From a virus: a stretch of DNA of 20,767 nt. Made by a program: the position numbers and the translations under genes. The stretch is taken from the UHGV virus genome UHGV-2126844; one strand, written 5' to 3'. Below, one piece after another: positions 1,316-20,767 of the stretch. Numbering within the stretch: position 1 is the first letter of the stretch; each line of letters opens with the position of its first letter. The notes beneath the pieces are model-generated. The model was not told where the DNA came from. It saw only the letters and a program-made list of their open reading frames with translations, and searched no databases.

Positions 1316-1420
1316 AATCCGTTGAAGCCTGCTTTTTTATACTAAGTTGGCATTATAAAAAAGCATTGCTTATCAATTTGTTGCAACGAACAGGTCACTA
1401 TCAGTCAAAATAAAATCATT
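1316..1420. other. attL: Prophage attL (B-O-P'): lambda core at 1331-1345, then P' arm with IHF-like site (1371-1383) and Int arm-type repeats (about 1393-1423)
   Basis: Exact 15-bp lambda common core GCTTTTTTATACTAA. Left flank (gaagcct) matches the bacterial B arm; right flank (gttggcattataaaaaagcattgcttatcaatttgttgcaacgaacaggtcactatcagtcaaaataaaatcatt) matches the lambda P' arm. int lies immediately adjacent. Confidence 0.88.
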
Positions 1421-2489
1421 ATTTGATTTCAATTTTGTCCCACTCCCTGCCTCTGTCATCACGATACTGTGATGCCATGGTGTCCGACTTATGCCCGAGA
1501 AGATGTTGAGCAAATTTATCGCTTATCTGCTTCTCATAGAGTCTTGCAGACAAACTGCGCAACTCGTGAAAGGTTGGCGGATCCCCTTCGAAGGAGAGAC
1601 CTGATGCTTTTCGTGCGCGCATAAAATACCTTGATACTGTGCCGGATGAAAGCGGTTCACGACGAGTAGATGCAATTATGGTTTCTCCGCCAAGAATCTT
1701 TTTGCATTTATCAAGTGTTTCCTTCATTGATATCCCGAGAGCATCAACATGCAATGTTGTTGGGATGGCAATTTTTACGCCTGTTTTGCTTTGCTCGACA
1801 TAAAGATATCCATCTACGATATCAGACCACTTCATTTCGCATAAATCACCAACTCGCTGCCCGGTAACAACAGCCAGTTCCATTGCAAGTCTAAGCCAAC
1901 ATGGTGATGATTCTGCTGCTTGATAAATTTTCAGGTATTCGTCAGCCGTAAGTCTTGATCTCCTTACCTCTGATTTTGCAGCGCGAGTGGCTGCGACCGG
2001 GTTTGTTGTTATATGGCCTTCAGCCATAGCCTCTCGGAATGCATCGCTCAGTGTTGATCTGATTAACTTGGCTGATGCCGCCTTTCCCTCGTCTATGTAT
2101 CCATTGAGCATTGCCGCAATTTCTTTTGTGGTGATGTCTTCAAGTGGAGCATCAGGCAGACCCCTCCTTATTGCTTTAATTTTGCTCATGTAATTTATGA
2201 GTGTCTTCTGCTTGATTCCTCTGCTGGCCAGGATTTTTTCGTAGCGATCAAGCCATGAATGTAACGTAACGGAATTATCACTGTTGATTCTCGCTGTCAG
2301 AGGCTTGTGTTTGTGTCCTGAAAATAACTCAATGTTGGCCTGTATAGCTTCAGTGATTGCGATTCGCCTGTCTCGGCCTAATCCAAACTCTTTACCCGTC
2401 CTTGGGTCCCTGTAGCAGTAATATCCATTGTTTCTTATATAAAGGTTAGGGGGTAAATCCCGGCGCTCATGACTTCGCCTTCTTCCCAT
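1419..2489 (-). CDS. int: Lambda-type tyrosine integrase Int (356 aa)
   Basis: Full-length ORF ending at the P' arm. Translation matches lambda Int as recalled (MGRRRSHERRDLPPNLYIRNNGYYCYRDPRTGKEFGLGRD...; catalytic region HELRSLSARLY ... LLGHKSDTMASQYRDDRG). Confidence 0.97.
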   Translation of the reverse strand: MGRRRSHERRDLPPNLYIRNNGYYCYRDPRTGKEFGLGRDRRIAITEAIQANIELFSGHKHKPLTARINSDNSVTLHSWLDRYEKILASRGIKQKTLINYMSKIKAIRRGLPDAPLEDITTKEIAAMLNGYIDEGKAASAKLIRSTLSDAFREAMAEGHITTNPVAATRAAKSEVRRSRLTADEYLKIYQAAESSPCWLRLAMELAVVTGQRVGDLCEMKWSDIVDGYLYVEQSKTGVKIAIPTTLHVDALGISMKETLDKCKKILGGETIIASTRREPLSSGTVSRYFMRARKASGLSFEGDPPTFHELRSLSARLYEKQISDKFAQHLLGHKSDTMASQYRDDRGREWDKIEIK

Positions 2490-2685
2490 TTCTGATCCTC
2501 TTCAAAAGGCTACCTGTTACTGGTCGATTTAAGTCAACCTTTACCGCTGATTCGTGGAACAGATATTCTCTTCCATCCTTAACCGGAGGAGGGAATATCC
2601 TGCATTCGCGCACCCATCGACGAACTGTTTCAAGGCTTCTTGGGCGTCGCTGGCGAGCGTTCCACTCCTGAAGTGTCAAGTACAT
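2467..2685 (-). CDS. xis: Excisionase Xis (72 aa)
   Basis: 72-aa ORF overlapping the int start, as in lambda. Translation MYLTLQEWNARQRRPRSLETVRRWVRECRIFPPPVKDGREYLFHESAVKVDLNRPV... matches lambda Xis as recalled. Confidence 0.95.
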   Translation of the reverse strand: MYLTLQEWNARQRRPRSLETVRRWVRECRIFPPPVKDGREYLFHESAVKVDLNRPVTGSLLKRIRNGKKAKS

Positions 2686-6183: not shown

Positions 6184-6860
6184 CGCCATTGCTCCCCAAA
6201 TACAAAACCAATTTCAGCCAGTGCCTCGTCCATTTTTTCGATGAACACCGGCACCATCTCGTCAAAACTCGCCATGTACTTTTCATCCCGCTCAACCACG
6301 ACATAATGCAGTCCTTCACGCTTCATACGCGGGTCATAGTTGGCAAAGTACCAGGCATCTTTTCGTGTCACCCACATGCTGTACTGCACCTGGGCCATGT
6401 AAGCCGACTTTATGGCCTCGAAACCACCGAGCCGGAACTTCATGAAATCCCGGGAGGTAAACGGGCATTTCAGCTCAAGGCCATTGCCGTCACTGCATAA
6501 ACCATCGGGAGAGCAGGCGGTGCGCATACTTTCGTCGCGATAGATGATCGGGGATTCAGTAACATTCACGCCGGAAGTGAATTCAAACAGGGTTCTGGCG
6601 TCGTTCTCGTACTGTTTTCCCCATGCCAGCGCCTTAGCATTAACTTCCGGAGCCACACCGGTGCAAACCTCAGCCAGCAGGGTGTGGAAGTAGGACATTT
6701 TCATGTCAGGCCACTTCTTTCCTGAGCGGGGCTTGGCTATCACGTTGTGAACTTCTGAAGCGGTGATGACGCCGAGCCGTAATTTGTGCCATGCATCATC
6801 CCCCTGTTCGACAGCTCTCACGTCGATCCCGGTACGCTGCAGGATAATGTCCGGTGTCAT
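6180..6860 (-). CDS. exo: Lambda exonuclease (Red-alpha), 226 aa
   Basis: Full-length ORF; translation [65 protein letters not shown]... matches lambda Exo as recalled. Confidence 0.96.
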
Positions 6861-7300
6861 GCTGCCACCTTCTGCTCAGTGGCTTTCTGTTTCAGGAATC
6901 CAAGAGCTTTCACTGCTTCGGCCTGTGTCAGTTCTGACGATGCGCGAATGTCGCGGCGAAATATCTGGGAACAGAGCGGCAATAAGTCGTCATCCCATGT
7001 TTTGTCCAGGGCAATCAGCAGAGTGTTAATCTCCTGCATGGTTTCATCGTTAACCGGAGTAATGTCGCGTTCCGGCTGACGTTCTGCGGTGTATGCGGTA
7101 TTTTCGACAATGCGCTCGGCTTCATCCTTGTCATAGATACCAGCAAATCCGAAGGCCAGACGGGCACACTGAATCATGGCTTTATGCCGTAACATCCGTT
7201 TGGGATGCGACTGCCACGGCCCCGTAATTTCTCTGCCTTCGCGGGTTTTGAATGGTTCGCGGCGGCATTCATCCATCCACTCGGTAACGCAGATCGGATG
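6857..7300 (-). pseudogene. bet: 5'-truncated bet (Red-beta): only about the C-terminal 140-145 codons remain; homology ends near 7300 with an in-frame TAG immediately upstream
   Basis: Minus-frame translation ...NHPICVTEWMDECRREPFKTREGREITGPWQSHPKRMLRHKAMIQCARLAFG...KATEQKVAA matches the C-terminal half of lambda Bet. Upstream of about 7300 the sequence is unrelated and AT-rich. Confidence 0.85.
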
Positions 7301-7462
7301 ATTACCGGTTCGCTACCAGGGAAGAACGGGAAGGAAAGGTGAGCACGAATCTGATTTTCAAGGAGTGTCGCCAGAGTGCCGCGATGAAGCGGGTGTTGGC
7401 ATTTTATCGCGGCAATTTTCAATAGACTATGTACATAAAAATATCATTTTTTTAATACATGT

Positions 7463-11172: not shown

Positions 11173-12255
11173 TTAGAACTGGTAAACCATACCTACAGCA
11201 ACGATATCATCGGTAGCAACGCCAGATGCTTTCGTGAAATCGCTCTTATCAATCAGGTTGATTTTGTAATCAACAAAAGTGGACATATTTTTGTTGAAGT
11301 AATAGGTTGCACCTACATCAATATATTCAACCAGGTCCTGATCACCCCACGCACCCAAGTCTTTTCCTTTAGATTGCAGGTAAGCAACGGACGGACGCAG
11401 ACCGAAGTCGAACTGATATTGTGCAACTACTTCGAAGTTTTGTGCTTTGTTGGCAATATGGTTATTACCAAAAACAGTCATGTTCTGGGTTTCAGAATAG
11501 GTGGTAGCCAGATAGATGTTGTTCGCATCATATTTCAGACCAGCTGCCCATACTTCAGCATTTTGACCAGATGCATTCAGGCTGTTGTTACCGTAGATAA
11601 CCTGATTATTAGTGCGGTCAGATTTAGCATAGGTTGCACCTACACCGAATCCTTCATACTCATAAGTAGTGGAGAAACCGAAACCATCACCATTAGCTTC
11701 AGTTACGTCAGTGCGGTCATTTTTACCCTGATACTGAGCAGCAAAGTTCAGACCATCAACCAGACCAAAGAAGTCATTGTTACGATAAGTTGCAACACCT
11801 GTGGTGCGACCAGTCATGAATACATCTGTTTGGGTCCAGGTATCGCCACCGAATTCTGGCAGAACGTCGGTCCATGCACCAATATCGTATGCTACACCGT
11901 AGTTACGGCCATAATCGATGGAGCCGTAGTCACCGAATTTCAGGCCAGCGAAGGCAAGACGGGTTTTATCTTTGGAGGAACCTTGAGATTCAGCGCGGTT
12001 GCCTTTGAATTCATATTCCCACTGACCGAAACCAGTCAGTTGATCGTTGATTTGGGTTTCACCTTTGAAGCCAAGACGGGCATAAGTAGTATCACCATCA
12101 TCTGCATCATTAGAGGAGAAGTAGTGCTTAGCATTAACTTTCCCGTACAGATCCAGCTTGTTACTGTCTTTATTATAAATTTCAGCTGCCTGAGCAGACA
12201 TCGCCATCAGTACTGATGCAGCTACAGCAGAAATTGCCACTGTTAATTTTTTCAT
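11173..12255 (-). CDS. nmpC: OmpC/OmpF-family general porin NmpC, apparently intact (360 aa precursor)
   Basis: Start taken at [23 protein letters not shown] (signal peptide); ends ...VAVGMVYQF with the C-terminal Phe typical of porins. Uninterrupted frame. Lies opposite in orientation between Q and the lysis genes. Confidence 0.9.
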
Positions 12256-12842: not shown

Positions 12843-13058
12843 ATGAAATCCATGGATAAGTTAACAACGGGTGTCGCCTATGGCACCTCAGCAGGTAGTG
12901 CCGGTTACTGGTTTTTACAGCTGCTCGATAAAGTCACGCCCTCACAGTGGGCAGCAATAGGTGTGCTGGGTAGCCTGGTATTTGGCCTGCTGACGTACCT
13001 GACAAACCTTTATTTCAAGATTAAAGAAGATAAGCGCAAGGCTGCGAGAGGTGAATAA
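12843..13058 (+). CDS. essD: Class II holin (EssD / S21-like), 71 aa
   Basis: From ATG at 12843: [71 protein letters not shown]; two TM segments and a charged C-terminus. Confidence 0.85.
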
Positions 13059-13555
13059 TGCCTCCATCATTACGAAAAGCCGTTGCTGCTGCTATTGGTG
13101 GCGGAGCAATTGCTATAGCATCAGTGTTAATTACTGGCCCAAGTGGTAACGATGGTCTGGAAGGTGTCAGCTACGTACCATACAAAGATATCGTTGGCGT
13201 ATGGACTGTATGTCACGGACACACCGGAAAAGACATCATGCTCGGTAAAACGTATACCAAAGCAGAATGCAAAGCACTCTTGAATAAAGACCTTGCCACT
13301 GTCGCCAGACAAATTAACCCGTACATCAAAGTCGATATACCGGAAACAACGCGCGGCGCTCTTTACTCATTCGTTTACAACGTGGGTGCTGGCAATTTCA
13401 GAACATCGACGCTTCTTCGCAAAATAAACCAGGGCGATATCAAAGGCGCATGTGATCAGCTACGTCGCTGGACATATGCTGGCGGTAAGCAATGGAAAGG
13501 TCTCATGACTCGTCGTGAGATTGAGCGTGAAATCTGTTTGTGGGGTCAGCAATGA
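13058..13555 (+). CDS. rrrD: Phage lysozyme / endolysin (RrrD-like), 165 aa
   Basis: Start overlaps the holin stop (TAATG). Translation [59 protein letters not shown]... recognised as the DLP12-type lysozyme. Confidence 0.9.
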
Positions 13556-14013
13556 ACAGAGTAACCGCGATTATCTCCGCTCTGGTTATCTGCATCATCG
13601 TCTACCTGTCATGGGCTGTTAATCATTACCGTGATAACGCCATTACCTACAAAGCCCAGCGCGACAAAAATGCCAGAGAACTGAAGCTGGCGAACGCGGC
13701 AATTACTGACATGCAGATGCGTCAGCGTGATGTTGATGCGCTCGATGCAAAATACACGAAGGAGTTAGCTGATGCGAAAGCTGAAAATGATGCTCTGCGT
13801 GATGATGTTGCCGCTGGTCGTCGTCGGTTGCACATCAAAGCAGTCTGTCAGTCAGTGCGTGAAGCCACCACCGCCTCCGGCGTGGATAATGCAGCCTCCC
13901 CCCGACTGGCAGACACCGCTGAACGGGATTATTTCACCCTCAGAGAGAGGCTGATCACTATGCAAAAACAACTGGAAGGAACCCAGAAGTATATTAATGA
14001 GCAGTGCAGATAG
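13552..14013 (+). CDS. rzpD: Inner-membrane spanin Rz (RzpD), 153 aa
   Basis: From ATG at 13552 overlapping the endolysin stop: [60 protein letters not shown]...; N-terminal TM anchor and coiled-coil region. Confidence 0.85.
13772..13954 (+). CDS. rzoD: Outer-membrane lipoprotein spanin Rz1 (RzoD), 60 aa, embedded in the +1 frame of Rz
   Basis: [24 protein letters not shown]... with a lipobox and a proline-rich tail ([18 protein letters not shown]); classic embedded Rz1 arrangement. Confidence 0.8.
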
Positions 14014-14044
14014 AGTTGCCCATATCGATGGGCAACTCATGCAA

Positions 14045-14338
14045 TTATTGTGAGCAATACACACGCGCTTCCAGCGGAGTATAAATGCCTAAAGTAATAA
14101 AACCGAGCAATCCATTTACGAATGTTTGCTGGGTTTCTGTTTTAACAACATTTTCTGCGCCGCCACAAATTTTGGCTGCATCGACAGTTTTCTTCTGCCC
14201 AATTCCAGAAACGAAGAAATGATGGGTGATGGTTTCCTTTGGTGCTACTGCTGCCGGTTTGTTTTGAACAGTAAACGTCTGTTGAGCACATCCTGTAATA
14301 AGCAGGGCCAGCGCAGTAGCGAGTAGCATTTTTTTCAT
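14045..14338 (-). CDS. borD: Bor lipoprotein (serum-resistance family), 97 aa
   Basis: MKKMLLATALALLITGCAQQTFTVQNKPAAVAPKETITHHFFVSGIGQKKTVDAAKICGGAENVVKTETQQTFVNGLLGFITLGIYTPLEARVYCSQ matches lambda Bor as recalled. Confidence 0.9.
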   Translation of the reverse strand: MKKMLLATALALLITGCAQQTFTVQNKPAAVAPKETITHHFFVSGIGQKKTVDAAKICGGAENVVKTETQQTFVNGLLGFITLGIYTPLEARVYCSQ

Positions 14339-14628
14339 GGTGTTATTCCCGATGCTTTTTGAAGTTCGCAGAATCGTATGTGTAGAAAATTAAACAAACC
14401 CTAAACAATGAGTTGAAATTTCATATTGTTAATATTTATTAATGTATGTCAGGTGCGATGAATCGTCATTGTATTCCCGGATTAACTATGTCCACAGCCC
14501 TGACGGGGAACTTCTCTGCGGGAGTGTCCGGGAATAATTAAAAACGATGCACACAGGGTTTAGCGCGTACACGTATTGCATTATGCCAACGCCCCGGTGC
14601 TGACACGGAAGAAACCGGACGTTATGAT

Positions 14629-15042
14629 TTAGCGTGGAAAGATTTGTGTAGTGTTCTGAATGCTCTCAGTAAATAGTAATGAATTATCAAAGGTATAGTA
14701 ATATCTTTTATGTTCATGGATATTTGTAACCCATCGGAAAACTCCTGCTTTAGCAAGATTTTCCCTGTATTGCTGAAATGTGATTTCTCTTGATTTCAAC
14801 CTATCATAGGACGTTTCTATAAGATGCGTGTTTCTTGAGAATTTAACATTTACAACCTTTTTAAGTCCTTTTATTAACACGGTATTATCGTTTTCTAACA
14901 CGATGTGAATATTATCTGTGGCTAGATAGTAAATATAATGTGAGACGTTGTGACGTTTTAGTTCAGAATAAAACAATTCACAGTTTAAATCTTTTCGCAC
15001 TTGATCGAATATTTCTTTAAAAATGGCAACCTGAGCCATTGG
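14629..15042 (-). CDS. ybcV: YbcV-like protein of the lambda right-end region (136 aa from the RBS-supported ATG)
   Basis: Start chosen at [18 protein letters not shown]... with RBS GGAAGG upstream. The track's 177-aa version begins at an upstream GTG with no RBS. The surrounding DNA matches the lambda right end between bor and cos as recalled. Confidence 0.65.
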
Positions 15043-15324
15043 TAAAACCTTCCATGTGATACGAGGGCGCGTAGTTTGCATTATCGTTTTTATCGTTTCA
15101 ATCTGGTCTGACCTCTTTGTGTTTTGTTGATGATTTATGTCAAATATTAGGAATGTTTTCACTTAATAGTATTGGTTGCGTAACAAAGTGCGGTCCTGCT
15201 GGCATTCTGGAGGGAAATACAACCGACAGATGTATGTAAGGCCAACGTGCTCAAATCTTCATACAGAAAGATTTGAAGTAATATTTTAACCGCTAGATGA
15301 AGAGCAAGCGCATGGAGCGACAAA

Positions 15325-15531
15325 ATGAATAAAGAACAATCTGCTGATGATCCCTCCGTGGATCTGATTCGTGTAAAAAATATGCTTAATAGCACCATTT
15401 CTATGAGTTACCCTGATGTTGTAATTGCATGTATAGAACATAAGGTGTCTCTGGAAGCATTCAGAGCAATTGAGGCAGCGTTGGTGAAGCACGATAATAA
15501 TATGAAGGATTATTCCCTGGTGGTTGACTGA
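15325..15531 (+). CDS. ybcW: YbcW-like small protein (68 aa)
   Basis: [68 protein letters not shown]; recognised from the DLP12 / lambda right-end region. Confidence 0.7.
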
Positions 15532-15695
15532 TCACCATAACTGCTAATCATTCAAACTATTTAGCCTGTGACAGAGCCAACACGCAGTCTGTCACTGTCA
15601 GGAAAGTGGTAAAACTGCAACTCAATTACTGCAATGCCCTCGTAATTAAGTGAATTTACAATATCGTCCTGTTCGGAGGGAAGAACGCGGGATGT

Positions 15696-15890
15696 TCATT
15701 CTTCATCACTTTTAATTGATGTATATGCTCTCTTTTCTGACGTTAGTCTCCGACGGCAGGCTTCAATGACCCAGGCTGAGAAATTCCCGGACCCTTTTTG
15801 CTCAAGAGCGATGTTAATTTGTTCAATCATTTGGTTAGGAAAGCGGATGTTGCGGGTTGTTGTTCTGCGGGTTCTGTTCTTCGTTGACAT
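15696..15890 (-). CDS. ylcI: YlcI-like ribbon-helix-helix-type small protein (64 aa)
   Basis: MSTKNRTRRTTTRNIRFPNQMIEQINIALEQKGSGNFSAWVIEACRRRLTSEKRAYTSIKSDEE; basic N-terminus then a strand-helix-helix pattern. Sits just upstream of cos. Confidence 0.65.
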   Translation of the reverse strand: MSTKNRTRRTTTRNIRFPNQMIEQINIALEQKGSGNFSAWVIEACRRRLTSEKRAYTSIKSDEE

Positions 15891-16039
15891 GAGGTTGCCC
15901 CGTATTCAGTGTCGCTGATTTGTATTGTCTGAAGTTGTTTTTACGTTAAGTTGATGCAGATCAATTAATACGATACCTGCGTCATAATTGATTATTTGAC
16001 GTGGTTTGATGGCGTAGATGCACGTTGTGACATGTAGAT

Positions 16040-16280
16040 GATAATTATTATCATTTTGCGGGTCCTTTCCGGCGATCCGACAGGTTACGGGGCGGCGACC
16101 TCGCGGGTTTTCGCTATTTATGAAAATTTTCCGGTTTAAGGCGTTTCCGTTCTTCTTCGTCATAACTTAATGTTTTTATTTAAAATACCCTCTGAAAAGA
16201 AAGGAAGCGACAGGTGCTGAAAGCGAGCTTTTTGGCCTCTGTCGTTTCCTTTCTCTGTTTTTGTCCGTGGAATGAACAAT
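16040..16280. other. cos: Lambda-type cos site: cosN 12-nt cohesive end GGGCGGCGACCT at 16090-16101, flanked by cosQ-side sequence (...caggttacg) and the cosB region up to the Nu1 start
   Basis: The sequence ...gatccgacaggttacg|gggcggcgacct|cgcgggttttcgctatttatgaaaattttccggtttaaggcgtttccgttcttcttcgtcataacttaatg... matches the joined lambda right and left ends as recalled. Confidence 0.88.
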
Positions 16281-16905
16281 GGAAGTCAACAAAAAGCAGC
16301 TGGCTGACATTTTCGGTGCGAGTATCCGTACCATTCAGAACTGGCAGGAACAGGGAATGCCCGTTCTGCGAGGCGGTGGCAAGGGTAATGAGGTGCTTTA
16401 TGACTCTGCCGCCGTCATAAAATGGTATGCCGAAAGGGATGCTGAAATTGAGAACGAAAAGCTGCGCCGGGAGGTTGAAGAACTGCGGCAGGCCAGCGAG
16501 GCAGATCTCCAGCCAGGGACTATTGAGTACGAACGCCATCGACTTACGCGTGCGCAGGCCGACGCACAGGAACTGAAGAATGCCAGAGACTCCGCTGAAG
16601 TGGTGGAAACCGCATTCTGTACTTTCGTGTTGTCGCGGATCGCAGGTGAAATTGCCAGTATTCTCGACGGGATCCCCCTGTCGGTGCAGCGGCGTTTTCC
16701 GGAACTGGAAAACCGACATGTTGATTTCCTGAAACGGGATATCATCAAAGCCATGAACAAAGCAGCCGCGCTGGATGAACTGATACCCATAGTATTAGCG
16801 GGACTGCAAATAGTGCCGGTGCGCACCAACACAAGAGTTCCGGTGCATTTGGTGGCACGAACACGAGCATTTTCCCTAATGGTTATACCGCGATTTCAAA
16901 TCTAA
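16279..16905 (+). pseudogene. nohD: Terminase small subunit Nu1/NohD, C-terminally truncated: homology for about 170 codons to about 16789, then reads out of frame into tail-fibre DNA
   Basis: MEVNKKQLADIFGASIRTIQNWQEQGMPVLRGGGKGNEVLYDSAAVIKWYAERD...KAAALDELIP matches lambda Nu1; after ELIP the ORF diverges (IVLAGLQIVPVRTNTRV...) where lambda has GLLSEYIEQSG. No terminase large subunit follows. Confidence 0.82.
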
Positions 16906-17165
16906 GCGCGGGGATTATGAGCACAACAAGCGGTAGTGGCCAGACTCGTAATGCAGGGAAGACATCATCAGATGGTGCTCATACCCACTCGCTGTCCGGC
17001 ACTGCTGCAAGCGCAGGCGCACATGCACATACTGTCGGTATTGGTGCTCATACGCACTCCGTTGCGATTGGCTCACACGGACACACCATCACCGTTAACG
17101 CTGCTGGTAACGCGGAAAACACCGTCAAAAACATCGCATTTAACTATATTGTGAGGCTTGCATAA
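16790..17165 (+). pseudogene. 3' fragment of a side-tail-fibre gene (lambda Stf-like C-terminus with His-x-His repeats), joined to nohD by deletion
   Basis: In-frame translation ...[101 protein letters not shown]; no start codon and no N-terminal fibre domains. Confidence 0.72.
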
Positions 17166-17746
17166 TGGCATTCAGAATGAGTGAACAACCACGGACCATA
17201 AAAATTTATAATCTGCTGGCCGGAACTAATGAATTTATTGGTGAAGGTGATGCATATATTCCGCCTCATACAGGTCTGCCAGCAAACAGTACCGATATTG
17301 CACCGCCAGATATTCCGGCTGGCTTCGTGGCTGTTTTCAACAGTGATGAGTCATCGTGGCATCTTGTTGAAGACCATCGGGGTAAAACAGTTTATGACGT
17401 GGCATCAGGGGACGCGTTATTTATTTCTGAACTCGGCTCATTACCGGAAAATGTTACCTGGTTATCCCCGGAAGGGGAGTTTCAGAAGTGGAACGGCACA
17501 GCCTGGGTGAAGGATACGGAAGCAGAAAAACTGTTCCGGATCCGGGAGGTGGAAGAAACAAAAAACAGCCTGATGCAGGTAGCCAGTGAGCATATAGCGC
17601 CGCTTCAGGATGCTGTGGATCTGGAAATCGCAACGGAGGAAGAAACCTTGTTGCTGGAAGCCTGGAAAAAGTATCGGGTATTGCTGAACCGTGTTGATAC
17701 GTCAACTGCACAGGATATTGAATGGCCAGTAGCACCTATAGGGTAA
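17165..17746 (+). CDS. tfa: Tail-fibre assembly protein Tfa (193 aa)
   Basis: [62 protein letters not shown]... matches lambda Tfa as recalled; start overlaps the stf stop (TAATG). Confidence 0.9.
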
Positions 17747-18604
17747 ATTCGTAATGATTACCTAAATACGTTATTCTTTTGTTCAAAAAGTGATTTTGCT
17801 ATAGATAGGGAGTATGTTCTTGGATTAAGAATAAAAATCGCCATGAAAGAGCTTCATGGCGAGTACATAAACGTACAAAATGTGATGAAAGTAGAGTGGC
17901 GTAAGCCACTATATTAAGATGTGACAATAGCGAAGAAAAGTAAATAACATTTTATGGACGTTTAATTGTTAATTATAAAAACTAGAGTGCCCGATATTGT
18001 TTACCTTGCTTTAAAATAATGTACTCAAACCAAATTTTTGAGCTAAAAGCTCAAATAATATAAATGCAATAATAATGTTTAATAAGACAATTAGCTTGCT
18101 TTGTATTTTCATTTCGGAATACTGTTAAGTAACTTTGATGACCCTAACAATAGATCGGAATTTTCTTAGAGTCAATGGTCACTGTTTTTGCTTGCAAAGC
18201 AAATGTTTTGGTGGTTATAAGTTGTCTTAATATAGTCACGCATGCAACTTGTTCCATGCGGAGATTAAAGATTGGAATATAACGCTAAGATGGAATTAAA
18301 TTACATTTGCAATAATCAATTTATTATTACGCAATAATTACCGATATTATTATTGTAAATTAATCATTAGAGTGCAAAAAGAAATGTAACGGCAAAATAA
18401 GAGGACGATAGCTGAGAAAAAAGCGTGCTTTCCCAATCTGGGGCAAATCACGTCTGAATGACACCTGAAAACAGGTGGTAGCCTCAAGAAGGCTTGGAAT
18501 ATTCTTCTTTAATGTTATGTAATTCATTGATTTTTCGTGTACGATTTAAAGACATTTATTCCAAGAAAAATTTTTAACTCTTTGATTTTTCGACTCTGTA
18601 TCAT

Positions 18605-18666
18605 CGGTCTCGAAAACCGGAGTAGGGGCAACTCTACCGGGGGTTCAAATCCCCCTCTCTCCGCCA
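18605..18666 (+). tRNA. Partial tRNA-Ser (3' about 62 nt: anticodon arm with CGA anticodon, long variable arm, T-arm, 3' acceptor strand and CCA); the 5' 30 nt are absent, so not a functional gene
   Basis: CGGTCTCGAAAACCGGAGTAGGGGCAACTCTACCGGGGGTTCAAATCCCCCTCTCTCCGCCA matches the 3' two-thirds of E. coli tRNA-Ser(CGA) as recalled. No complementary 5' acceptor strand (GGAGAGA) upstream. Confidence 0.75.
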
Positions 18667-19250
18667 CTTTATCAATGACTTATCTCCCGACTTCCCGCCT
18701 TGCTTTTCCTAAACAGAACAATCGTAGAATATTCTTGAAGGGTTAGATCGTCACTGTTTTCTGTTCGATACTGTGACATTCAGCACTTGATTCGCTATGG
18801 ATCTGACAGGAAGGTTTTGAGCGAAAATTTGCAGTTATTCAGTCGTTTTCTTATCGGTCACCATTATTCTTTTAGACATTGATCCTACAAAGCTGCCGCA
18901 AAGTTGGTGGTGGGAACTGAAGTTGCGTAGAGAAGGGGTCAATACCCGGAGGCAAACATGGGCTGGCAAAAGTGTAGCGGTATTAGGCGCAGCTATTTAG
19001 CCTAGTTATGTTTTATGAAAACTTGATATCATATAAGTGTCTTACTTATTGGCTGTAAATAAGTTTTTCCTAAGGAATTGTTTCTTGAGTATCATTTGTA
19101 ACTGTAACGGAATTTATAATCCTTTGCTTTATTGTTACGGTATTTTTTATCACACCCTATTTTTTATGTGGTTTTTTATACTGAAGTTTGGCAAAGTGAA
19201 CTTTATATGCATATACTTCATCCTGGTTTCAGTTAAGTTGGGTGGATGAT

Positions 19251-19994
19251 ATGGCAACTACATGTTCAGTTATATTGATTTTGGAGTCCTTTGATGTTTA
19301 TTTCGGAAAAGAGAGTGTGTTTCTGGAGAGAGGTTCATCTGTACTTGTCGACTCTAGCTCTAGAGATTTTTTCCTGACATATCCTGAAAGAGTGATAGTG
19401 GCGGATTTTGGCGCTGAGTTTATTAGTCGCTATTTGAAAGCTAATAACTTAAGGGATATTTCTGATTGTAGGGAATATCCATCTTATTTAAAAATAAACT
19501 TTGCTGACTTCAGTTTAATTAAAGGATTAATTAGTTGGGCTAATCACTGTGCTGAATACATAGAAATTTTTGATGAGTCTATTGCTTTTACATGTCTCTC
19601 TGCATTTTCTTCTGAAAAACAATTTGGAGTATTTCTGTTTGAATGTTTGAAAAGCACAGGGGCTAAAGTTAAAACGATTATTCATACGGATTTATCTGCA
19701 CCATGGCGTCTTAAGGATATATCATCAAGATTATATCTCAGCGAAAGTTTACTAAAGAGGAAATTGAAAGAAGAGGGGGTATCATTCAGTAAGATCATAC
19801 TTGATGAGAGGATGCAAATGGCTGAATATTTACTCAGCACTCGTTGTTATCCTATTAGTAAAGTAGCTAAGGTCTGTGGTTATGCCAGTGTCTCATACTT
19901 TACTTATGTATTTAGACGTTATTTTGGTGTTTCTCCAAGTCAATACTCTCAGAGCAGTTCAGAAAGTAAAATTCTTACTCACCAGGGAATCTGA
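19251..19994 (+). CDS. AraC/XylS-family transcriptional regulator (about 247 aa), AppY/EnvY-like
   Basis: C-terminal double helix-turn-helix typical of AraC proteins (WRLKDISSRLYLSESLLKRKLKEEGVSFSKIILDERMQMAEYLLSTRCYPISKVAKVCGYASVSYFTYVFRRYFGVSPSQY). Recognisably related but not identical to AppY as recalled. Long AT-rich leader. Start may instead be the GTG at 19242. Confidence 0.78.
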   Translation: MATTCSVILILESFDVYFGKESVFLERGSSVLVDSSSRDFFLTYPERVIVADFGAEFISRYLKANNLRDISDCREYPSYLKINFADFSLIKGLISWANHCAEYIEIFDESIAFTCLSAFSSEKQFGVFLFECLKSTGAKVKTIIHTDLSAPWRLKDISSRLYLSESLLKRKLKEEGVSFSKIILDERMQMAEYLLSTRCYPISKVAKVCGYASVSYFTYVFRRYFGVSPSQYSQSSSESKILTHQGI

Positions 19995-20035: not shown

Positions 20036-20503
20036 TTAAGTTAACGTTACCCGCTGACGTCGATATTCTCGCGGAGAGCGATAACCCAACGCACTGTGCG
20101 GATGGTTTTCATTGTAATGTTCGATCGCCACTGCAAGATTATGCAATGCCGTTCTTACATTCGGTTTCGGCATGAACGCGATGTAGTCTTCCTTCATCGT
20201 TTTCACGAACCTTTCTGCCATTCCATTACTCTGAGGACTGCTGATTGCCGTTGTGCAGGGCTCCAGATTCAACTCTCTGGCGAACTGCCATGTTTCATGC
20301 GCTCTATACGCTGAACCGTTATCTGTCAGCCACTGGATGGACTGTTCCGGTACTTTATCGCCAAAGCGTTTTTCTATCGCTCCTAACATGACATCCTGCA
20401 CTGTCGCTTTATCGTAACCTCCCGTGCTTGCGGCCCAGTCTATGGCTTCACGATCGCAACAGTCCAGGGCGAACGTAACACGCAGTTTTGAATCGCCACG
20501 GGT
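20036..20503 (-). pseudogene. IS3-family transposase OrfB fragment (C-terminal integrase/DDE core, about 155 codons, no start)
   Basis: Open frame [48 protein letters not shown]...[22 protein letters not shown]. The upstream part is missing; the frame is closed by TAA at 20504-20506. Confidence 0.72.
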
Positions 20504-20551
20504 TTAACAGACACCTCAGAGTCATTTAAGATGGCTTAAAGAGAGGTGCCC

Positions 20552-20767
20552 ATGAGCGGTAAGCGTTATCCCGAAGAGTTTAAAACTGAAGCAGTCAAAC
20601 AGGTTGTTGATCGCGGTTATTCTGTTGCCAGCGTTGCAACACGTCTCGATATCACCACCCACAGCCTTTATGCCTGGATAAAGAAGTACGGTCCGGATTA
20701 CTCCACTTTTTCATCAAGCCAATCCGCCCACCACTGCATCATTTCTCTGCGCTTATCGAGATACTGA
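20552..20767 (+). CDS. IS3-family transposase OrfA (HTH N-terminal part, 71 aa to a TGA at the window end); may be truncated or frameshifted
   Basis: MSGKRYPEEFKTEAVKQVVDRGYSVASVATRLDITTHSLYAWIKKYGPD is a typical IS3-family OrfA helix-turn-helix. The tail (YSTFSSSQSAHHCIISLRLSRY) does not look like the usual leucine-zipper region. Confidence 0.65.
   Translation: MSGKRYPEEFKTEAVKQVVDRGYSVASVATRLDITTHSLYAWIKKYGPDYSTFSSSQSAHHCIISLRLSRY

Follow-up and report, generated by a model that had tools for sequence, protein, structure and literature searches.

A lambdoid prophage remnant at att-lambda of E. coli with an intact cos sequence and a deletion junction at a recurrent Nu1 breakpoint

Introduction

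The closest described counterparts of the locus analysed here are two prophages of E. coli K-12. In Qin (ynfO-cos-nohA-stfQ'-tfaQ-pinQ), a lambda-type cos is followed by a Nu1 gene cut near its 3' end, a C-terminal fibre fragment and an intact tfa, and the head and tail genes are all gone. In DLP12 (ylcI-cos-nohD-aaaD'-tfaD-ybcY'-tfaX-appY), a full-length Nu1 (181 aa) is kept and the break falls ~100 codons inside gene A. Recombination between lambda and DLP12 swaps the cos-nu1 region, half of the junctions lying beside cos, and the DLP12 segment works in lambda; stf/tfa sequences are likewise exchanged with Qin and Rac (PMC3945230).

Two further systems depend on the terminase of another phage. 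Sp4 of E. coli O157 Sakai is a lambdoid prophage without a working terminase whose cos matches that of a co-resident phage, and a prophage with a disrupted nu1 can be packaged when another prophage sharing its cos supplies the terminase (PMC2669165). PICIs carry a chromosomal cosQ-cosN beside a TerS-like gene and need a lambda-like helper terminase (PMC9026076). For lambda-type packaging, cosN and cosB suffice for initiation, whereas termination requires the cosN of a second cos together with cosQ, the subsite with a role in termination (PMC4669245).

Here we analyse a 20,767-nucleotide stretch of DNA, referred to throughout as the window, which resembles each of these systems in part. With Qin it shares all of the features listed above, with 97% DNA identity on either side of the junction. 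Qin differs in its locus (ydfJ, not att-lambda), in its breakpoints (Nu1 residue 176 and 233 fibre codons, against 169 and 126 in the window) and in the pinQ invertase next to tfa, which the window lacks. The late region is that of DLP12 (ybcN-ninE-ybcO-rusA-ylcG-quuD-porin-essD-rrrD-rzpD-bor-ybcV-ybcW-ylcI-cos-Nu1; 98.3% over 12945-16780), and both elements have an AraC-family (AppY-like) gene downstream; DLP12 is set apart by its argU locus, its own integrase, its full-length Nu1 and its break within gene A. Sp4 retains the greater part of its genome, is amplified when a neighbouring prophage replicates and has a size that can be packaged, whereas the window has no ori and its element is 19.7 kb. 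PICIs have their own replication, AlpA regulation, Rpp and a cosB unlike that of the helper, none of which is found in the window.

Results

The window carries a 19.7-kb lambdoid remnant at att-lambda of E. coli (ybhC...ybhB/bioA; Table 1). In PEC1009, which is 99.96% identical, attR lies ~225 bp past the window end, its core carrying one mismatch outside the overlap, and ybhB-bioA comes immediately after it. Head and tail genes are therefore not hidden just outside the window, the one circumstance that an earlier, sequence-only reading of this DNA had named as fatal to a deletion.

Annotation was carried over from PEC1009 to the window by a 1500-nt offset. Lambda homology is confined to att-int-xis, ea22-exo-bet', Rz-cos-Nu1' and tfa, and neither comparison with lambda nor the transferred annotation placed any of A-J, cI, cro, N, O or P in the window; the absence of O and P, already noted from the sequence, is thus borne out and extends to cI, cro and N. 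With the deletion that joined bet' to ren', the interval from gam to P was lost, and with it cI, cro, N, O and ori. Also missing is the morphogenetic block, ~21 kb on the lambda map, from A up to and including most of stf. The element is accordingly a cryptic lambdoid prophage: it is bounded by att at a known site, its structural, replication and immunity genes are gone, and other phage genes are kept. K-12 DLP12 at argU was ruled out as its identity by the ybhC and ybhB/bioA flanks, the lambda int/att and the intact porin gene, the K-12 DLP12 counterpart of which, nmpC, is reportedly IS5-disrupted.

Table 1. Features of the prophage remnant, in window coordinates.
Feature	Position	Strand	Evidence
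attL core GCTTTTTTATACTAA (lambda att), 47 bp from ybhC	1331..1345	+	exact match; same position in PEC1009
lambda-type integrase, 356 aa, intact	1419..2489	-	Pfam Phage_integrase and lambda Arm-DNA-binding domain; 97.9% DNA identity to lambda
excisionase, 72 aa, intact	2467..2685	-	Pfam Exc, E=4e-41
bet' (N-terminus missing) joined to ren' at ~7303	6857..7425		PEC1009 annotation; lambda homology ends inside bet at 7305
cosQ heptamer GGGTCCT	16060..16066	+	identical to lambda; ~30 bp upstream of cosN
cosN 12-nt cohesive-end sequence GGGCGGCGACCT	16090..16101	+	sole exact match within the window; flanks as in lambda
cosB: R3 16139-16154; I1 (IHF site) between R3 and R2; R2 16198-16213, inverted; R1 16239-16254	16139..16254	+	alignment
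Nu1' (TerS), codons 1-169 plus 2 nt	16279..16787	+	Pfam Phage_Nu1, 1-164 of 164, E=1e-100
chimeric 208-aa ORF: Nu1(1-169) plus 39 residues out of frame from fibre DNA	16279..16905	+	translation
deletion junction, 5-bp microhomology ATACC	16783..16787	+	common to both parents; inside hotspot CTGATACCGG
stf', last 126 codons of side-tail-fibre gene, GAHTHS-type repeats	16788..17165	+	translation
tfa, tail-fibre assembly gene, 193 aa, intact	17165..17746	+	Pfam Caudo_TAP, E=8e-43

The cosN, cosB and first ~170 Nu1 codons described from the sequence were all found, as was cosQ. The cosN 12-mer occurs once in the window against 0.03 occurrences expected by chance, with a top-strand nick expected between 16089 and 16090. 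Using the subsite definitions of PMC9026076 and PMC4669245, we aligned cosB with lambda, Turner, PhiR68_2, DE3, Qin and the sister remnants described below. R3, R2 and R1 lie upstream of the TerS gene in the order, spacing and orientation of lambda, with no indel relative to lambda PV340536. Positions 16000-16300 differ from the isolated phages Turner and PhiR68_2 at a single base, an A to G change at 16207 in R2. This position is equivalent to R3 bp 55 and lies at the edge of the TerS-contacted segment; mutations in R2 are reported to be milder than those in R3 (PMC9026076). The R2-G allele is also carried by contigs in which the Nu1, A, portal and capsid genes (Nu1, A, B, C, E) are full length. 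We infer from these comparisons a sequence-intact cos of lambda specificity, which lambda terminase with IHF would be expected to nick.

Homology to lambda continues into Nu1 and stops at 16787 (98.5% DNA identity over 15900-16787). Nu1(1-169) differs from the lambda protein by a single amino acid, L132I; its winged-helix DNA-binding and oligomerisation parts are complete, and the last 12 of 181 residues are lost, replaced by 39 unrelated ones. The TerL-binding segment comprises the last 30-40 residues, and loss of 30 residues is reported to lead to poor TerL binding (PMC9026076). The truncated TerS is probably still able to bind cosB, but the element has no TerL gene to supply its partner.

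The jump from Nu1 into the last ~125 codons of stf, followed by an intact tfa, was seen much as first described. The accompanying statement that Nu1 is fused to a tail-fibre fragment holds for the DNA but not for a protein: the Nu1 frame continues into the fibre DNA in a different reading frame for 39 codons and stops at 16905, giving no hybrid polypeptide. The fibre frame lacks a start codon apart from one internal ATG, at 16917. In PEC1009 the same sequence as stf' forms the 3' end of a 987-aa fibre gene, and stf' is 97% identical to phage ev099; tfa has 93% DNA identity to lambda tfa and is annotated in PEC1009 as tail fiber assembly protein. The parents of the junction read CTGATACC followed by GGGG on the Nu1 side and GCGCATACC followed by CATAG on the stf side.

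Near-identical remnants of other strains show four different junctions. At att-lambda, PEC1009, MS 124-1, NCTC9087 and NCTC9040 carry the same element with the same R2-G cos allele, 1-7 SNPs apart. The junction joins Nu1(169) to lom'-stf in PEC1009, A(349) to stf' in NCTC9087 and Nu1(15) to the lom 3' end in NCTC9040, all unlike the window. The proposal that a single deletion removed the genes from A to the tail is thus right about the missing block, but one event is not demonstrable, because sister remnants only 1-7 SNPs away carry other junctions.

Taking exactly 3,084 bp out of PEC1009 gives the window, apart from 7 SNPs in 20.7 kb. The window could have arisen in a single step from a less reduced ancestor, or by two steps via a PEC1009-like state. 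In the latter case, loss of A to part of lom at ATACCG would first have given Nu1(169) joined to lom' with a full stf and tfa, and a 3,084-bp ATACC-to-ATACC loss would have followed. Besides the exact length difference, the two-step route draws on the PEC1009 junction (CTGATACCG followed by TTATGAG; intact lom parent, AAATACCG followed by TTATGAG) and on a similar possible chain from NCTC9087 (GGGGATACC followed by TTCTG) to a P0053-type junction (CTGATACC followed by TTCTG). However, the window lineage and PEC1009 have no derived SNP in common, two PEC1009-private SNPs are missing from the window, and two independent events at the Nu1 site are not improbable because the site is a general hotspot. 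A SNP phylogeny, tried as a means of ordering the deletion steps, was uninformative: the pattern among the att-lambda remnants is star-like and does not decide between a one-step and a two-step origin. We regard two steps as a reasonable possibility that falls somewhat short of probable.

The breakpoint zone, CTGATACCGG, corresponds to lambda nt ~697-704, immediately ahead of gene A's ribosome-binding site and start. Among Nu1-like proteins, at least 30 distinct junction partners occur at residue 169/170. In one sample of 102 metagenome contigs, 6 distinct junctions fell within 8 bp at this zone versus 9 single breaks over the 1.9 kb of gene A, a breakpoint density roughly 100-fold higher. The hotspot is not confined to this prophage or this locus, and it reappears in a Nu1 lineage with only 82% identity; many independent remnants keep cos-Nu1 with Nu1 truncated within residues 165-176. 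The Qin junction also shows TA microhomology (GAATATA followed by ACCGCG; parent, GGGTA followed by ACCGCG). We conclude that the Nu1 breakpoint is a recurrent hotspot, and this is the new element here; no description of a Nu1 deletion hotspot was found in the literature searched. In a wider contig census, matches were mostly lambda control-DNA contamination.

Several candidate explanations for the hotspot were rejected. Integration of a mobile element at the Nu1 site was suggested by a Nu1-integrase fusion (P0045/L021), but the integrase belongs to a PKF11 satellite inserted in capsid gene E, and the Nu1 junction there is another deletion endpoint; the satellite itself, with genes for integrase, AlpA, primase, SSB, capsid and TerS, is unlike the window. 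No IS element was present at the hotspot in the six contexts examined. The zone can form only a weak 7-bp stem, and its fold is no better than that of shuffled sequences (z = -0.6). A Chi-directed RecBCD stop fails on two counts: there is no Chi in the window, the nearby GCTGGATG matching 6 of 8 Chi positions, and DNA is retained for 8-12 nt beyond it versus 4-6 nt expected. To the eye, the left half of cosN resembles the Nu1 site and some of its partners, a likeness unsupported by any test. A general "TA rule" for deletions in these prophages was also rejected: nine gene A breakpoints do not follow it.

Discussion

The window is probably a passive relic within a cryptic lambdoid prophage at att-lambda, with a DLP12-like late region and lambda-like int, xis and att. 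An illegitimate join at ATACC microhomology between the Nu1 3' end and the 3' part of stf, in one step or as the last of a series, would have stripped the terminase large subunit, portal, capsid, tail, lom and most of the fibre gene. What remains is a sequence-intact cos of lambda specificity, TerS without TerL, a promoterless and startless fibre fragment and an intact tfa. "Passive relic" is the default reading of such a locus; selection could also account for cos-Nu1 being kept in many independent remnants.

How breaks come to recur at the same place is a separate matter. It is possible, and we suggest it tentatively, that a specific activity repeatedly makes a DNA end or lesion at CTGATACCGG, and that microhomology joining then strips the morphogenetic genes while always sparing cos and TerS. 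Candidate makers of such an end are off-site terminase, a topoisomerase or other host nuclease, and a fixed block to replication or transcription. On the specific-activity reading, successive rounds could reuse the site because each junction preserves it, and prophage "grounding" would be channelled via this one site.

Established lambda biology indicates that the element cannot package itself. The truncated Nu1 is its only packaging gene. By the same biology, a lambda-specificity terminase from a co-resident or superinfecting phage could nick cos, and packaging in situ would proceed towards tfa, attR and bio; lacking a terminating cos, it would yield defective one-ended particles rather than transducing phage. 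There is one cosN in the window, and PEC1009 has no exact cosN in the 50 kb downstream in the packaging direction, which excludes cos-to-cos packaging unless the element is excised and multimerised. A cosmid-like substrate has two cos sites in the same orientation ~38-51 kb apart, or is a replicating multimer; the window has neither arrangement and no ori. The earlier suggestion of packaging in trans is thus plausible as regards initiation, given the intact cos, but meets a single cos, no ori and no downstream cosN beyond that step.

We think it unlikely that the remnant is kept as a mobilisable element, excised by a helper and packaged via cos by the helper terminase, whether as a primitive satellite or for cos-initiated transduction of the bio region. 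The intact int and xis, the exact attL core, an attR core whose one mismatch is outside the overlap, and the intact cos of lambda specificity are all compatible with mobilisation, and defective prophages packaged in trans offer a precedent (PMC2669165). Against this, neither the ORF list nor the transferred annotation holds a replication module or a helper-responsive regulator, as a satellite or PICI would have; there is no packaging-redirecting protein (Rpp) and no capsid gene, and cosB is of lambda type. The cos is single, with no second within 50 kb. Lambda heads accept DNA within size limits, and 19.7-kb monomers, at ~40% of the lambda genome, are too small to fill one. The sister remnants have also lost different pieces, NCTC9040 even Nu1 beyond codon 15, which resembles drift and not a conserved mobile unit.

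More doubtful still is an anti-phage decoy, in which Nu1(1-169) would bind the cosB of an invading lambda-specificity phage without recruiting TerL, or the chromosomal cos would titrate terminase, so that packaging is disturbed. The complete DNA-binding and oligomerisation parts, the replacement of the extreme C-terminus (part of the TerL-binding region), the recurrence of truncation within residues 165-176 in independent cos-Nu1 remnants, and the real interference at the TerS/cosB level exerted by PICI Rpp proteins (PMC9026076) all speak for it. However, only 12 residues are lost, as opposed to the 30 reported for poor TerL binding (PMC9026076), expression would require the late promoter and Q, and a selective window does not explain junctions packed within 4-8 nt.

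An assembly or scaffolding artefact between two lambdoid prophages can be dismissed almost entirely: although the contiguous window-type junction is absent from all 5,426 complete RefSeq E. coli genomes searched, the identical 208-aa ORF is present on 23 public contigs of independent assemblies (NCBI, ENA and Logan; one contig of 5.15 Mb) at the same chromosomal locus, always between ylcI and tfa and next to ybhB-bioABFCD, and two of these loci equal the window over all shared sequence while a third differs by 7 SNPs.

As a passive relic, the window is a further example of the familiar cryptic lambdoid prophages in which cos, Nu1 and tfa persist. Incoming phages can acquire cos, lysis and fibre-assembly sequence from relics of this type, and recombination of this kind, also envisaged in the sequence-only reading, is already documented for the K-12 counterparts (PMC3945230). 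From established lambda biology, a terminase cut at cos would be expected to leave a double-strand break, promoting homologous exchange with a phage over the R-Rz-bor-cos-Nu1 block, and tfa with the fibre-tip sequence may be exchanged with phages sharing homology.

If a specific process makes an end at the Nu1/A boundary, it would explain the common cos-Nu1'-fibre'-tfa layout of E. coli remnants, including that of the K-12 Qin type. The hotspot would then represent a concrete, testable mechanism of prophage domestication, and a natural hotspot for the study of end joining and illegitimate recombination in E. coli.

Locus and cos site of the element

The flanking genes, ybhC on the left and ybhB-bioA just past the right end, rule out K-12 DLP12 as the identity of the element, which sits where lambda itself classically integrates. 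In E. coli PEC1009, a 99.96% identical strain, the core of attR has 1 mismatch and is found ~225 bp past the window end; together with the position of attL, this gives an element of ~19.7 kb. The sequence-only reading had allowed that head and tail genes might lie just outside the window; none is there, and ybhB-bioA follows attR. Both int and xis are intact. Lambda homology is confined to att-int-xis, ea22-exo-bet', Rz-bor-cos-Nu1' and tfa (primes denote truncation), and the remaining late region is DLP12-like, running from ybcN through quuD, an intact porin gene, essD-rrrD-rzpD, bor, ybcV, ybcW and ylcI. In K-12, the DLP12 copy of the porin gene is reported to be disrupted by IS5. The join of bet' to ren' implies that the segment from gam to P, with cI, cro, N, O and ori, was lost, and immunity and replication with it; the sister remnant of E. 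coli NCTC9087 has lost an additional 452 bp in this region. The sequence from the AT-rich stretch to the IS fragments may have been inserted separately, or may mark a previous end of the phage.

Features of the element in window coordinates
Feature	Position	Details
attL core	1331-1345	exact
bet' joined to ren'	6857-7425	join at ~7303; second, old deletion
OmpC/NmpC-like porin gene, prophage-borne	11173-12255	- strand; intact, 360 aa
cosQ	16060-16066	GGGTCCT
cosN	16090-16101	12-nt cohesive-end sequence; single occurrence within the window
cosB R3	16139-16154	
cosB R2	16198-16213	inverted
cosB R1	16239-16254	
Nu1 start	16279	
AT-rich stretch	17750-19240	1.5 kb without ORFs, between tfa and the AraC-family gene
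att-core-like GGTTTTTTATACTGA	19170-19184	2 mismatches; in the AT-rich stretch past tfa
AraC-family (AppY-like) gene	19242-19994	
IS fragments	~20036-20700	downstream of the AppY-like gene

The cos region is laid out as the right end of the lambda chromosome joined to the left end, as in a prophage. Using the subsite definitions of Feiss and co-workers (PMC4669245, PMC9026076), we aligned it with lambda, DE3, Turner, PhiR68_2, K-12 Qin and the sister remnants. All of cosQ, cosN and cosB were located and are near-identical to those of isolated phages, bearing out the earlier claim of an intact cos. Across 16000-16300 a single base differs from the recently isolated phages Turner and PhiR68_2: an A-to-G change at 16207 in R2, equivalent to bp 55 of R3, at the border of the stretch that TerS, the small terminase subunit encoded by Nu1, contacts. 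This change is common to all att-lambda remnants, and it also occurs on two metagenome contigs (L031 and L096) with full-length Nu1, A, portal, protease/scaffold and capsid genes. It is therefore a natural cos allele rather than a scar of decay.

The Nu1-stf junction and its sister remnants

When a 1.9-kb query was compared with a phage database, 15900-16787 matched the cos-Nu1 region of lambda-type phages (98.5-99.7%) and 16783-17800 matched the tail-fibre 3' end and tfa of phages ev099 (97.1%) and mEp332 (96.0%); no single phage record spanned both parts. Much as had been read from the sequence, Nu1 retains 169 codons plus 2 nt, followed by 126 codons of the side-tail-fibre gene stf and an intact tfa of 193 aa. 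The parental sequences (CTGATACC followed by GGGG in Nu1, GCGCATACC followed by CATAG in stf) share the bases of a 5-bp microhomology through which they were joined. The described fusion of Nu1 to the fibre fragment holds for the DNA but not for a protein: past the junction the Nu1 reading frame enters the fibre DNA out of register, runs for 39 more codons and stops at 16905 (208-aa ORF in total), and the fibre frame, which encodes GAHTHS-type repeats, lacks its own start, so no hybrid is made. A search of 5,426 complete E. coli genomes in RefSeq did not find the junction as contiguous sequence. The exact 208-aa ORF was found on 23 contigs from public assemblies other than those, always with ylcI on one side, tfa on the other and ybhB-bioABFCD adjoining; two of these loci equal the window over all shared sequence.

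Sister strains carry the same remnant, separated by 1-7 SNPs over ~20 kb (loci L001, L004 and L005 against the window), with other junctions, giving four junction states including that of the window. PEC1009 passes from Nu1 residue 169 to lom', full stf and tfa, joined through ATACCG; NCTC9087 has full Nu1 and 349 codons of A, then 400 codons of stf; NCTC9040 passes from 15 codons of Nu1 to the lom 3' end. At a minimum, the ancestor they share must have possessed A' and lom'-stf; as the bet'-ren' junction is common to the sister remnants, this ancestor was by then already defective. As PEC1009 minus exactly 3,084 bp is the window, the latter may be a second-step derivative, formed between ATACC at the old junction and ATACC in stf, or may be an independent one-step deletion of ~21 kb. 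The originally proposed loss of the late-gene block stands; as to its having been a single deletion, the SNP matrix is star-like and does not separate one step from two. Four junction states at 1-7 SNPs imply that late genes were lost quickly and in parallel once the element had become defective.

Known relatives and the capacity of cos

The feature is an unremarkable example of an established class, the cos-bearing cryptic lambdoid prophages with a Qin-like Nu1'-stf'-tfa arrangement. Qin of K-12 has the same layout, from cos to nohA (its Nu1 gene) cut at residue 176, 233 fibre codons and tfaQ, likewise joined at a microhomology (TA); K-12 DLP12 has full nohD and ~100 codons of A, then tfaD. 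Between lambda and DLP12 the R-Rz-cos-nu1-A block is swapped, and half of these junctions adjoin cos, which the authors ascribe to terminase cuts; DLP12 nu1 is functional in lambda, and stf/tfa are exchanged between lambda and Qin or Rac (De Paepe et al., PMC3945230). A prophage whose nu1 is disrupted was shown to be packaged by terminase from a second prophage that has the same cos (Asadulghani et al., PMC2669165), and fibre/tfa remnants can serve the host, as in the PinQ/StfE2 block of T2 adsorption (PMC12529663). Packaging in trans and fibre exchange, the two functions suggested earlier, were thus already known for this class.

Packaging initiation requires cosN and cosB, and termination requires a second cosQ-cosN downstream (PMC4669245). 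Both initiation subsites are intact, the window has one cos, and in PEC1009 no exact cosN was present over the next 50 kb along the direction of packaging (tfa, attR, bio, uvrB, moa ... ybiU). A helper terminase could therefore nick cos and start packaging towards bio, the product being only one-ended, defective particles. Such particles are the 'doc' class of old lambda work. If helper Int/Xis excised the element, the resulting 19.7-kb circle would have no ori and, unless multimerised, could not fill a head. By the defining tests the element is not a satellite or PICI, since it has no replication module, regulator, Rpp or distinct cosB. The suggested functions are plausible, restricted here to recombination and abortive packaging initiation.

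Additional sequences

In E. coli PKF11 (L023, 8115-18900), a ~10-kb satellite-like element interrupts the capsid gene E of a lambdoid prophage. It encodes an integrase, AlpA, a TIR/nucleotide-binding protein, an Icd-like protein, primase, SSB, its own major capsid and decoration proteins, TerS and an Abi protein; remnants of this type occur in L021 (8509-10300). Lambda homology ends at the same point on three metagenome contigs (L049, L056 and L121), and the satellite integrase is present on L049 and L121.

Exact matches to a Nu1 21-mer in species-representative genomes (L144-L174) fell mostly on short contigs of unrelated taxa, including Marinifilum, Kitasatospora, Bradyrhizobium and Paenibacillus. 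All of these contigs are lambda-identical, several with assembler-reported coverage near 1x, and for their lambda identity they look like lambda control-DNA contamination of the assemblies.

A recurrent breakpoint at the Nu1/A boundary

With the 208-aa ORF as query, a protein census returned many chimeric Nu1 proteins, which were then aligned to Nu1. Most part from Nu1 exactly at residue 169/170 (after ...AAALDELI or ...ELIP), where at least 30 distinct downstream partners follow; elsewhere from residue 145 to 181 the number of partners per position is 0-4. The partners include the phage genes A, portal (three junctions), protease/scaffold, capsid E, FI, Z/U, V, tail-tip genes and J, and further lom (three), stf (several), tfa (four), the host gene ydfJ and a satellite integrase. 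An independent DNA census covered 102 metagenome contigs with a Nu1 18-mer ending in GATA. Seven contigs, with 6 distinct junctions, break within GATA..CCG, three share one junction at +21 (Qin type), and the next 1.9 kb holds only 9 single, non-recurrent ends. The breakpoint excess at the hotspot is ~100-fold per bp relative to gene A.

The hotspot is present in lambda-, DLP12- and Qin-like late regions, at the att-lambda and ydfJ loci, and even in a Nu1 lineage of just 82% identity. In lineages with ATG for ATA the junctions move to ATGCC^ or ATGCCGG^ (^ marks the break), and one contig breaks at GATACCGG^; these shifts define the hot zone as CTGATACCGG, immediately 5' of the gene A ribosome-binding site. 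Examples are the window (16780-16790) and the compared loci L001, L020, L021, L041, L060, L073, L086, L091, L103 and L176-L178. In L177 Nu1 is joined to an inverted early region, so this case is not a simple deletion. Partner sites share TA with the Nu1 site in 23 of ~33 cases, although TA makes up just 3% of positions in the late DNA of lambda, and GGTA is over-represented among them (9/23, p=6.5e-4 in a post hoc test). Because the left half of the site is kept at each junction, the site is reusable, and reuse would account for the Nu1 breakpoints of the window and PEC1009 being 1 bp apart.

Two kinds of cause are left as candidates: a nick or protein-linked end formed site-specifically, and a stall at a fixed point. 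Selection that keeps TerS residues 1-165 while removing the A start could narrow the zone, but such selection cannot focus junctions on 4-8 nt. A hairpin, Chi, and an IS or integrative element at the hotspot, as well as a general TA rule for deletions, were each tested without success. Our literature search, whose reach did not extend to several older papers on cryptic lambda prophages, found no description of a Nu1 hotspot. It is this recurrent breakpoint at the Nu1/A boundary that is worth pursuing.
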